A program made the translations under genes and the position numbers. The notes under the pieces were generated by a model. It saw only the letters and a program-made list of their open reading frames with translations, was not told the DNA's origin and searched no databases. From an uncultured Pseudomonadota bacterium (lineage in GTDB: Bacteria; Pseudomonadota; Alphaproteobacteria; Rs-D84), in NCBI GenBank assembly GCA_902801125.1, contig CADCGT010000001.1:97101-161100 (forward strand): a stretch of 64,000 nucleotides of DNA, in the 5' to 3' direction. Below are positions 55,440 to 57,518 of the stretch, piece by piece (the stretch's first letter is position 1; each line of letters begins with the position of its first letter).

Positions 55440-55643
55440 TTATTTGCGATAGTAATTCAAAATCCATACGCGGATTGCAGACGATAAATTGTCACCCAAT
55501 TTGCGGGTCGCGTCTATTTCGGCAATCATTGTCGCAATTGGGACGCGTCGCCGTGTCGCGATTTCGCGCAGTGCCACGATAAATTCATCTTCCAAAGATA
55601 CACTGGTTTGATGCCCCGATAAAGATACAGATATTTTCTTCAT
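55440..55643 (-). CDS. ribbon-helix-helix (CopG/Arc-like) domain protein
   Basis: 68 aa. N-terminal beta-strand KKISVSL, then two helices. Last gene of the 57518-55440 operon. Confidence 0.55.
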   Translation of the reverse strand: MKKISVSLSGHQTSVSLEDEFIVALREIATRRRVPIATMIAEIDATRKLGDNLSSAIRVWILNYYRK

Positions 55644-55644
55644 T

Positions 55645-56082
55645 TTATAATTTCCCACCAACCAGGCAATCCAGCATCGCACGATACGGGTCATCGTACC
55701 GGCGCAATGTATTTAATCCGCAATTGTCAAGCATCGTGCATTTGCCAAATGAATCAAATGCAAACCAAAACAAATCGTTGCGTCCAAAAATAGTTTTACC
55801 ACGCAGTATCGCCAGGTTTGTTAGTTCATTGTTTATTTGAAATATGTTTGGAATTGGGTGTTTGCCGGGACGCCCAAATTCTTTGGTACCAAATATGTAC
55901 CCGTTCCCCAATTTTATGCCGCCACAGGTTTGGTATAAATCTGTTAGAAATTTTGGCAATGTCGCAGCGCGTATTTTTTGCAGATTCATATTGATGATGT
56001 TTATCGCACCAATTTGTGCGGCCGGCGCAAATGTTGCGCCACGGGAATTTATGATATTCAAAAATTCATTTTGATTCATCAT
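55645..56082 (-). CDS. SUKH-1 / SMI1-KNR4-like protein (candidate immunity protein)
   Basis: 145 aa. LPKFLTDLYQTCGGIKLGNGYIFG resembles the SMI1/KNR4 LPxxYxxFLxxxNGG core. Assignment is by motif only. Confidence 0.45.
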   Translation of the reverse strand: MMNQNEFLNIINSRGATFAPAAQIGAINIINMNLQKIRAATLPKFLTDLYQTCGGIKLGNGYIFGTKEFGRPGKHPIPNIFQINNELTNLAILRGKTIFGRNDLFWFAFDSFGKCTMLDNCGLNTLRRYDDPYRAMLDCLVGGKL

Positions 56083-56088
56083 TACCTT

Positions 56089-56592
56089 TTACCCCCGCAT
56101 ATTTGATGCGTTGTTTGCCGCCATTTGGCTAAGTCGGTCCGCAACACCGTTTCCGCCGTTGCCCGATATGGTTGAATGTATCGGCATATAGATTTTTTTT
56201 GCCGGGTTCGGCAACCATATTGTGTCATGGCCACTTTGTTCTATGATAAACCGGTCCAGGTTTTGCGATTGCGGAAATGTAAAGCACATAAATAAATTAT
56301 CAATTTTTAATTCACCGCCCCACATAAGCGGAACACGAAACCGTATAGATAAATTATCCGGAATTTCATGCCCCATCAACAGGTTCATAAATTCATCGCG
56401 CGACAAATTCATCATCGCCAATTCTTGAACCGAATCGGACAACGAACGCATAAATTCACGGCACAGACCGCGATATTTTTGAAACCAATCTTTATCAACG
56501 TGCGGGTTTTGGGGACGAAATGGGGTGACCGGTAAATCCGACATTTTTAAATCGCTTAAACGCTTTTCGGCGATTGCCTGGGTCCATTCCAT
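56089..56592 (-). CDS. small HNH-like (beta-beta-alpha-Me, GH-E-like) nuclease candidate
   Basis: 167 aa. GHEIP...WGGELKIDNLFMC matches the HNH H-x-I-P...GG-x5-NL-x2-C spacing. Lacks the terminal CxxC/H zinc ligands. Confidence 0.4.
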   Translation of the reverse strand: MEWTQAIAEKRLSDLKMSDLPVTPFRPQNPHVDKDWFQKYRGLCREFMRSLSDSVQELAMMNLSRDEFMNLLMGHEIPDNLSIRFRVPLMWGGELKIDNLFMCFTFPQSQNLDRFIIEQSGHDTIWLPNPAKKIYMPIHSTISGNGGNGVADRLSQMAANNASNMRG

Positions 56593-57518
56593 TATTGTTT
56601 TCCTATGTAATTTGTGACGGTGTCGATATATGTCGATACCGCATCAAACAAATCATCGTCATAATCTTCGGGTTTTGTGTTCGGGTGTGCGTTCATAAAT
56701 TCGCGCATTTCATCCAATGTCTTGAACACAGATATTAAATCGTTTTCTGGTCCTTGGTCGGGTGCATTTAATATGCACGCATGTACCGACATATCGTTCG
56801 CGGTGTCGCCCAATGTGTCGTCGAACACGGTGACCAATGTTTGTATCGCATCCATTGCGTCCGCCACCGCCGCCCCAGATGTTGCAATCCATACGGTGTT
56901 GTCGTATGCCAATGCAATCATTGGGTCAACCAATTTGCCAATATGGGCGCATTTTTTTGGCGCGTATCCCGCATTTTGAAATATAGATTTAATTTCTTCC
57001 ATGTGTTGTGGCGCGATTCTTGGGGCGGGTGCATCGGTACGTGGCCGTGGTGCCGGTATAGTGTTTTGTTGATTTGTTTGCTGTTGTGCCGGCGGTAAAT
57101 TGGTGCGCATACCCGATGGCGATATTGGACGCGGCGGGGTTGGGCGATGCGACGCCGGAACATTGTTCGGTGTCGGTGGAATGGGTACTGGTGTTGGTTC
57201 TGGTTGGGGTAATACAATGTTTGAAGCACTGGCATTTGGGGCCGGTGGTATTTGTGTTGGTTCAATGAAAAACGTCTGGCGCCGGCCACGCATAATAAGG
57301 TACAAACCAGTCAAACCGATAACAATTGCCCCAATAAGTGATATGTAAAAATCAAGTTTTATTTGTGTCCGATATGCCTGGAGTTCAGACAGATATGCCC
57401 AATGTGCCGCAGAAAATATATTGAACCCGTATTTTATGTTCATCCAGAATGTCGCGGCCAAGGTGATAGTCATCAACCACAGCAGGCCAAGTAAAAAATT
57501 ATCAAATTTTTTTGTCAT
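56592..57518 (-). CDS. membrane protein with two N-terminal TM helices, Pro-rich linker and conserved C-terminal domain
   Basis: TM1 and TM2 in residues about 8-75, about 90 aa rich in Pro/Thr/Gln, C-terminal about 130-aa domain of unknown family. Its stop overlaps the next start as TAATG. Confidence 0.5.
   Translation of the reverse strand: MTKKFDNFLLGLLWLMTITLAATFWMNIKYGFNIFSAAHWAYLSELQAYRTQIKLDFYISLIGAIVIGLTGLYLIMRGRRQTFFIEPTQIPPAPNASASNIVLPQPEPTPVPIPPTPNNVPASHRPTPPRPISPSGMRTNLPPAQQQTNQQNTIPAPRPRTDAPAPRIAPQHMEEIKSIFQNAGYAPKKCAHIGKLVDPMIALAYDNTVWIATSGAAVADAMDAIQTLVTVFDDTLGDTANDMSVHACILNAPDQGPENDLISVFKTLDEMREFMNAHPNTKPEDYDDDLFDAVSTYIDTVTNYIGKQ

Follow-up and report, generated by a model that had tools for sequence, protein, structure and literature searches.

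An alphaproteobacterial operon with an HNH-like gene

In a 64,000-nucleotide stretch of DNA from an uncultured alphaproteobacterium of the lineage Rs-D84 (assembly GCA_902801125.1, contig CADCGT010000001.1, positions 97,101 to 161,100; hereafter the window), four minus-strand open reading frames (ORFs) are packed together and encode, in transcriptional order, a membrane protein, a protein related to HNH nucleases, a protein of the SUKH-1 fold and a ribbon-helix-helix (RHH) protein (Table 1). An initial annotation, made from the sequence alone, had singled out these ORFs as a compact operon and had read them as a possible toxin, immunity and regulator module. The four ORFs are indeed present, the amino-acid strings it quoted, GHEIP...WGGELKIDNLFMC and LPKFLTDLYQTCGGIKLGNG, are found in the sequence, and reading the nucleotides bore out the junctions it described. 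One base within a TAATG at 56592 is common to the stop codon of the 308-amino-acid (aa) gene and the start codon of the 167-aa gene, 6 nt separate the 145-aa gene from the 167-aa gene before it, and a single nucleotide (55644) lies between the stop of the 145-aa gene and the start of the RHH gene. In its longest form the RHH ORF would encode 84 aa (55440-55694); because its homologues measure 66-71 aa, the true start is the ATG of MKKIS at 55643, giving 67 aa. A consensus scan found no minus-strand terminator within the operon, and this, together with the overlap and the gaps of 1-6 nt, fits co-translation of the components of a complex.

Table 1. Features of the operon and its immediate surroundings, in positions of the window
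Feature	Product or role	Position	Strand	Remark
Gene 1	308-aa predicted inner-membrane protein	56592-57518	minus	ORF call
Gene 2	167-aa HNH-like protein, His-Me-finger-derived, lacking the motif histidines	56089-56592	minus	ORF call
Gene 3	145-aa SUKH-1 (SMI1/KNR4, YrhA-like) fold protein	55645-56082	minus	ORF call
Gene 4	67-aa RHH_4 protein	55440-55643	minus	start at the MKKIS ATG
Divergent intergenic region, 43 bp	presumed promoter/operator	57519-57561		between gene 1 and the 224-aa gene
224-aa protein gene	possible fifth component	57562-58236	plus	divergent from gene 1
YbeY-Lnt fusion gene	670-aa ORF	53424-55436	plus	converges on the RHH gene

At E<=1e-3 we found 362 homologues of the 167-aa protein, 629 of the 145-aa protein and 107 of the 308-aa protein, the last at 31-93% identity (alignment A3). 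The 120 listed homologues of the 167-aa protein are all 154-171 aa long and 59-98% identical to it, and all come from metagenome-assembled genomes (MAGs) of uncultured Alphaproteobacteria or 'Rickettsiales' and from gut or rumen metagenomes. The order TM (transmembrane) protein, HNH-like, SUKH, RHH_4 recurs in every related locus fetched, and the description of the ORFs as a compact operon holds. Hundreds of homologues, constant gene order and ratios of nonsynonymous to synonymous substitution rates (dN/dS) of 0.05-0.2 therefore identify the ORFs as real genes rather than chance reading frames.

An HNH-like protein without the motif histidines

The 167-aa protein carries the core S82-I-R84-F85-R86-V-P88-x3-G92-G93-x5-N99-L-F-x-C103-x-T-F-P107...S109...D113 and a conserved C-terminal tail, G146-G-N...D152-R153. 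Its predicted model, with a predicted local distance difference test score (pLDDT) of 84, contains a beta-beta-alpha unit at residues 81-85, 100-104 and 105-117, as the initial annotation had anticipated, and with it the GG...N(L) hairpin that marks the core of HNH and His-Me finger proteins. No Pfam HNH-clan or GH-E match was obtained for the protein and 32 relatives (33 members) even at E<=10, contrary to that annotation's expectation, and NCBIfam, PADLOC and PHROG scans of the same proteins likewise returned no HNH or GH-E match. Foldseek comparison of the model with the PDB gave nothing significant, and PDB searches with the whole-family profiles A1, A2, A3 and A4 gave chance-level matches only.

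The relationship emerged from an exhaustive profile search beyond the protein's own clade, which revealed a distant branch with the pattern 'PENFNVH[LI]K[IV]P..YGG...F.NL.LIQ..P.H..IH.F.D.Q'. Aligned with hhalign, the window family and this branch match over 144 columns with 98.9% probability (E 2.6e-17). A trimmed 52-column core of this histidine-keeping branch (A5) was the sole informative profile for searching the PDB, and at E<=10 it returned three matches, all HNH nucleases: the pyocin AP41 DNase at E 0.076 and two Cas8f-HNH sequences at E 0.38. The alignment of A5 with AP41 holds a single one-residue gap; together, the profile-profile and AP41 alignments fix the register of the family.

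In the nucleases ColE7 and ColE9 the first histidine of an HH pair and two helix histidines are metal ligands, and the second histidine of the pair is the general base. In the fixed register R84-F85 of the window protein occupy this HH position, N99 is the HNH asparagine, and S109 and D113 stand at the two helix-histidine positions. Among 121 close relatives R84, N99, C103 and D113 never vary, S109 is kept in 112 and H139 in 116. A strand-1 histidine general base combined with helix His/Asn/Asp metal ligands was not found, and judged from its aligned residues the 167-aa protein is without the residues that define an HNH nuclease. Of the earlier HNH call, the GG-x5-NL-x2-C core and the kinship to HNH proteins stand; the histidine on which it was anchored does not. 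That residue, H75, belongs to a GHE triplet that the model places upstream of beta-strand 1 rather than at the strand's end, and it is shared by 8 of the 121 relatives; it is neither conserved nor the catalytic equivalent.

The assignment of the triplet to the GH-E clade is lost with it, given arginine at position 75 in 100 of the 121 relatives, glutamate at position 76 in just 56, and no Pfam GH-E match; G74 is conserved. Zhang et al. 2012 (PMC3482391) give GH, E, N and E as the conserved residues of Tox-GH-E and list Imm-SuFu and Imm-ank, rather than SUKH, as its immunity partners, which also speaks against the proposal that SUKH-1 is the immunity family paired with GH-E nucleases. A deeply divergent HNH toxin described in a 2026 preprint, Rehh, was considered as a possible relative, and a first look found no link.

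The partner proteins

Hydropathy places two N-terminal TM segments in the product of gene 1, at about residues 8-27 and 53-78. They are followed by a 90-aa linker (residues 79-168) that is 28% proline and includes an invariant R130-P131, and hydropathy and composition thereby confirm the two-TM protein with a proline-rich linker that had been described initially. The C-terminal domain (residues 169-308), predicted to be cytoplasmic, is acidic, with an isoelectric point (pI) of 4.2. In one relative (L086) a mis-called strand had made the gene seem absent; with tblastn it is recovered, at 84% identity.

The 145-aa protein is basic (pI 9.35) and has the alpha+beta SUKH fold, and the SUKH-1-like call made for it holds, with weak sequence signals. 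The NCBIfam YrhA family matches it at 26 bits (E 6e-6), below the 55-bit cut-off; Pfam SMI1_KNR4 matches 7 of 32 members (best E 0.0019) and leaves the window protein unmatched; and one homologue carries the NCBI name SMI1/KNR4. Three loci (L083-L085) with 105-aa SUKH calls were considered as natural knock-outs and rejected, the calls being gene-calling differences on identical DNA. In only one metagenome assembly (L078) does a C-rich run close to the 5' end of the SUKH gene, at ~3580, lack 5 nt, next to an HNH-like gene identical to those of intact loci; this deletion may reflect an error of assembly or a natural frameshift that the cell tolerates.

The identification of the last gene as a ribbon-helix-helix gene was upheld by Pfam RHH_4 (PF13467), which matches the protein over profile positions 2-67 of 67 and above the gathering score (E 2.2e-21, 76.1 bits against a 25-bit cut-off). 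Homologues of 66-71 aa occupy the same position in all related loci. Gene 4 is probably a DNA-binding regulator; a literature search on RHH_4 and PF13467 found nothing relevant to it.

A related module organized around a coupling ATPase

A genome scan with the histidine-retaining branch yielded 63 loci, which define what we call type A; the arrangement of the window is type B, both names being coined here. Nearly all of these loci come from MAGs labelled Alphaproteobacteria, mostly from gut and rumen, for example 'Acetobacter sp. CAG:977' and UBA and RGIG bins. Type-A genes run in the order TM protein, type IV coupling protein (T4CP), HNH-like protein with three histidines, SUKH, with an RHH_4 gene upstream at times (18/63). 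In 63/63 loci a VirD4/TraG-type coupling ATPase of 720-780 aa (Pfam T4SS-DNA_transf at E 1e-53, also TraG-D_C and TrwB_AAD_bind) directly precedes the HNH-like gene, and in 63/63 a SUKH-like gene of 143-158 aa, named 'YrhA family protein' by NCBI, directly follows it. A hidden Markov model (HMM) of the window SUKH family finds 45 of these SUKH genes (E<1e-3), and clustering finds all 63. The window HNH-like HMM matches the type-A HNH-like genes in every locus, and a TM homologue of gene 1, of 345-400 aa, lies upstream of the ATPase in 54/63, the gene-1 HMM itself detecting it in 44. The C-terminal domain of the type-A TM proteins gives weak NERD / REase matches in 5/20 (best E 7.5e-4). VirB or Dot genes were not found among the conserved neighbours of type-A loci, whose flanks hold varied housekeeping genes.

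The type-A HNH-like proteins have L/I/M at the general-base position, which suggests that they may bind metal without being active DNases. Many of them start with MWDWS and continue with a long P/Q-rich linker. Example modules, from the set L006-L068, are L021 2223-7028, L017 1908-6981 and L045 2447-6995, and the TM-protein gene is tandemly duplicated in some T4CP-linked loci (L017 782-2969, L027 818-2956, L035 847-3016).

The TM, HNH-like, SUKH and RHH components of the window operon are thus all homologous to those of type A, whereas the adjacent VirD4/TraG-type ATPase is missing: an HMM built from 40 type-A ATPases matched nothing within the 64 kb of the window, nor within any type-B locus. 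Besides lacking the ATPase, type B has R84, S109 and D113 in place of the three histidines and carries the RHH_4 gene at a fixed position at the 3' end. The C-terminal 'GG(N/K)xxxDR' tail of the HNH-like protein is kept in both types. An acidic, nuclease-like insert, 'D.E.GDWLADEE', present in type-A TM proteins seems to be missing from those of the window clade. Distant relatives follow a similar division. A short histidine-retaining member sits after a T4CP, a histidine-less member of 196 aa belongs to a T4CP-less operon of TM, HNH-like, SUKH and RHH_4 genes, and a member that keeps only the strand histidine forms a bare pair with a SUKH partner. The missing ATPase therefore coincides with the lost histidines and, tentatively, with a lost acidic insert in the TM protein.

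The two types also differ in charge. In distributions that are broad, the median pI is 8.8 for the HNH-like and 6.3 for the SUKH proteins of type A, and 6.8 and 8.4, respectively, for those of type B; the polarity of type B is reversed relative to that of a basic nuclease with an acidic inhibitor. Comparison of GenBank accession blocks and locus-tag prefixes revealed no MAG with both types, in a sample too small for this to carry weight. In the literature that could be searched, neither arrangement turned up.

Selection, synteny and chromosomal neighbours

We estimated dN/dS by the Nei-Gojobori method between the window and one relative (L086), at 87.6% nucleotide identity. The ratio is 0.066 for the HNH-like gene, 0.049 for the SUKH gene, 0.114 for the TM gene and 0.195 for the RHH gene, as compared to 0.038, 0.099 and 0.151 for the neighbouring genes encoding RarA, YbeY-Lnt and TrmB. 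Purifying selection on the operon is strong, like that on its housekeeping neighbours. The YbeY-Lnt fusion gene adjoins the operon in all close-relative loci, and TrmB, GluRS and HlyIII genes lie beyond the divergent gene in most related loci. Indeed, both the arrangement of the operon and its YbeY-Lnt neighbour persist where the HNH-like protein is 37% identical to that of the window. Fixed synteny and low dN/dS therefore mark the operon as a core locus and not as a diversifying or mobile toxin cassette.

The 43-bp region that we presume to be the promoter and operator of the operon holds TGTGATATAAT, which lies some 12 nt before the ATG of gene 1. A consensus scan found promoter-like sites no more often than chance, and a search of this divergent intergenic region for operators found short imperfect repeats only. 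On its other side lies the gene for the 224-aa protein, whose longest ORF starts at 57421; its homologues are 221-234 aa long, so the start at MIKSEN fits (alignment A7). All Pfam and NCBIfam matches to this protein are insignificant. The gene is fast-evolving (dN/dS 0.24), adjoins the operon in every window-type locus whose flank on this side could be recovered, and type-A loci do not have it; its product is a possible fifth component.

At the opposite end, the YbeY-Lnt gene combines a YbeY endoribonuclease domain with an apolipoprotein N-acyltransferase (Pfam YbeY, LNT_N and CN_hydrolase in orthologues), lies ~3 nt from the RHH gene and is kept as a fusion in all related loci down to 40% identity. 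Elsewhere in the window, away from the operon, a small DnaJ-domain protein is encoded on the minus strand at 36222-36713; it is 33-42% identical to the product of a DnaJ-domain gene just upstream of RHH_4 in 21 T4CP-linked loci. Housekeeping genes account for all ten of the window's largest ORFs, including those for AcrB, an AddB-like nuclease, FtsK, ComEC, BipA, MutL and SecD. In no part of the 64 kb did any Rfam family, tRNA included, attain its gathering score. The GC skew stays positive nearly throughout, with a steadily rising cumulative skew, and the operon lies opposite the prevailing G-rich strand.

Interpretation and alternatives

On balance we think it fairly probable that the HNH-like protein of the operon is a domesticated form without catalytic activity, encoded together with its SUKH partner, a membrane-anchored protein and an RHH_4 protein. 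Within this interpretation, the best-supported account of the operon is that it is a derived, ATPase-less form of the T4CP-associated four-family module, and the best-supported account of the HNH-like protein is that it is a pseudo-nuclease under strong purifying selection. By analogy with nuclease/SUKH pairs, the pseudo-nuclease and the SUKH protein would form a stable heterodimer, most likely as a stoichiometric complex, which the cytoplasmic domain of the TM protein would tie to the inner membrane. The RHH protein would repress the shared 43-bp divergent promoter and in this way autoregulate the operon. We infer that the complex would serve for binding or scaffolding, being neither DNase nor toxin, with a housekeeping role throughout the lineage.

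Several points weigh against this interpretation. The PDB sequence matches of the sister family, at E 0.076-0.38, are sub-significant. H139, together with the invariant N99, D113 and C103, could form an unconventional active site. Loss of the acidic insert in the type-B TM protein is tentative, as the C-terminal domains align at only 14-20% identity, and the heterodimer and its tethering are argued from nuclease/SUKH analogy and gene coupling. Finally, if type-B genomes hold a type-A locus elsewhere, the window proteins could serve a distant ATPase.

This last point leads to an alternative that we regard as unlikely, in which the operon is an accessory or adaptor set for a T4CP encoded elsewhere, a paralogous set of type-A accessory genes whose products would still dock on a VirD4-type T4CP and tune substrate recruitment. 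It can draw on homologues of all four families around a T4CP in the 63 type-A loci, on the C-terminal tail that the two types have in common, and on the precedent of the Legionella coupling complex, in which the T4CP DotL works with a membrane-anchored partner and small soluble ones, DotM, DotN and IcmSW (PMC7280309, PMC5802825). The possibility of an unconventional active site leads to another, which we consider very unlikely: a housekeeping nuclease or nickase that uses R84, N99, D113 and H139 on the beta-beta-alpha scaffold, regulated by the SUKH protein and positioned by the TM protein. The substituted residues are indeed invariant rather than decayed (R84, N99, C103 and D113 in 121/121, H139 in 116/121), under very strong purifying selection. 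However, in all characterized His-Me finger nucleases known to us strand 1 ends with a histidine that acts as general base; at this position the window protein has F85 and the sister family L/I/M, and the protein is not basic (median pI 6.8).

The reading that domain content suggests, and which the initial annotation had proposed, is that of an active HNH (GH-E-like) nuclease toxin, neutralized by the SUKH protein and autoregulated through the RHH protein as a toxin-immunity or addiction module. HNH-related, SUKH-fold and RHH genes do stand together in one tight operon, and for several families of HNH toxins a SUKH protein is documented as the immunity partner (PMC3113570, PMC3482391). Yet H75 is unconserved, and R84, F85, S109 and D113 take the place of the motif histidines; the 33 members examined have no Pfam HNH/GH-E match at E<=10 and no PADLOC match, and GH-E is paired with Imm-SuFu and Imm-ank in the source classification (PMC3482391). 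Moreover, the 167-aa protein is a single domain that has no N-terminal trafficking domain, signal peptide or hydrophobic segment, and the charges run the wrong way, the would-be toxin being near neutral and the would-be immunity protein basic. Polymorphic toxins and toxin-antitoxin (TA) cassettes are characterized by diversification and patchiness. In the window operon we found no delivery domain, rapid diversification, variable context or mobility signature; instead, dN/dS is 0.05-0.07 for the supposed pair, which remains syntenic among housekeeping genes across deep divergence, with identical neighbours down to 37% identity. With the histidines lost, synteny fixed and dN/dS low, a toxin module is highly improbable.

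A broader joint reading, which we offer tentatively and as a possibility somewhat short of even, is that types A and B together represent a chromosomal machine, so far undescribed, in uncultured Alphaproteobacteria of the gut. Its parts would be a stand-alone coupling ATPase of the VirD4 type, a NERD-like membrane-anchored protein, a histidine-triad HNH-like protein without a general base, and a SUKH protein as partner, with VirB and Dot genes missing from the vicinity. The operon of the window would then be an ATPase-independent derivative whose two nuclease-like domains now serve for binding only and have taken on a new function, essential to the lineage, at the inner membrane.

The HNH/SUKH pair of the window is toxin-like by domain content and core-housekeeping by behaviour, a clear case that would be mislabelled by genome-mining pipelines in which such pairs are called as toxins. 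With the type-A loci comes a set of genes, apparently undescribed, that surrounds a chromosomal type IV coupling ATPase and is carried by a large group of uncultured Alphaproteobacteria from gut and rumen, and the correlated loss of the ATPase and of nuclease-type residues offers a testable case of nuclease scaffolds reused as binding modules.

Comparison with known systems

One close likeness is to the HNH DNases of colicins and pyocins (Tox-ColE7 class), in which a small partner gene also stands directly after the nuclease gene. At the level of sequence the resemblance was seen for the type-A family, where 'ENFNVHLKIPLEYGG...NL...P.H..IH' aligns with 'EKFEIHHVVPLESGG...NL...RHSEIH' of the pyocin AP41 core (PDB 4uhp), and SUKH is a listed immunity class for Tox-ColE7 (PMC3482391). 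In contrast to these nucleases, the window protein carries R84/F85 where they have HH and S109/D113 where they have the two helix histidines, lacks translocation and receptor domains, and is encoded by a chromosomal, syntenic and slowly evolving gene. The window operon would function like, and derives from, a colicin/pyocin-like HNH/SUKH pair, but it shows neither the catalytic hallmarks of HNH nucleases nor any behavioural feature of polymorphic toxins or TA modules.

The SUKH-1 family (SMI1/KNR4, YrhA; for example B. subtilis YobK, PDB 2prv) provides the second comparison. The window SUKH protein scores under the curated thresholds of this family, is basic rather than acidic, accompanies a partner without nuclease residues, and is encoded by a single conserved copy and not within a polyimmunity array. 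A precedent for a non-toxin HNH domain without histidines is provided by the eukaryotic versions of Tox-GHH that have lost the conserved histidines and represent inactivated HNH domains (PMC3482391). The window protein differs from them in belonging to another HNH clade and in being bacterial, cytoplasmic and still paired with a SUKH protein.

Lastly, the DotL-DotM-DotN-IcmSW complex of Legionella is an analogue of type A only, in that a VirD4-family ATPase stands beside membrane-anchored and small soluble partners. Homology to DotM or DotN was considered and rejected, since the cytoplasmic domain of DotM is all-alpha and neither protein appeared among the sequence or fold matches. The window operon differs from the Legionella complex in having no coupling ATPase, and the type-A loci differ from it in standing apart from any VirB or Dot/Icm genes.

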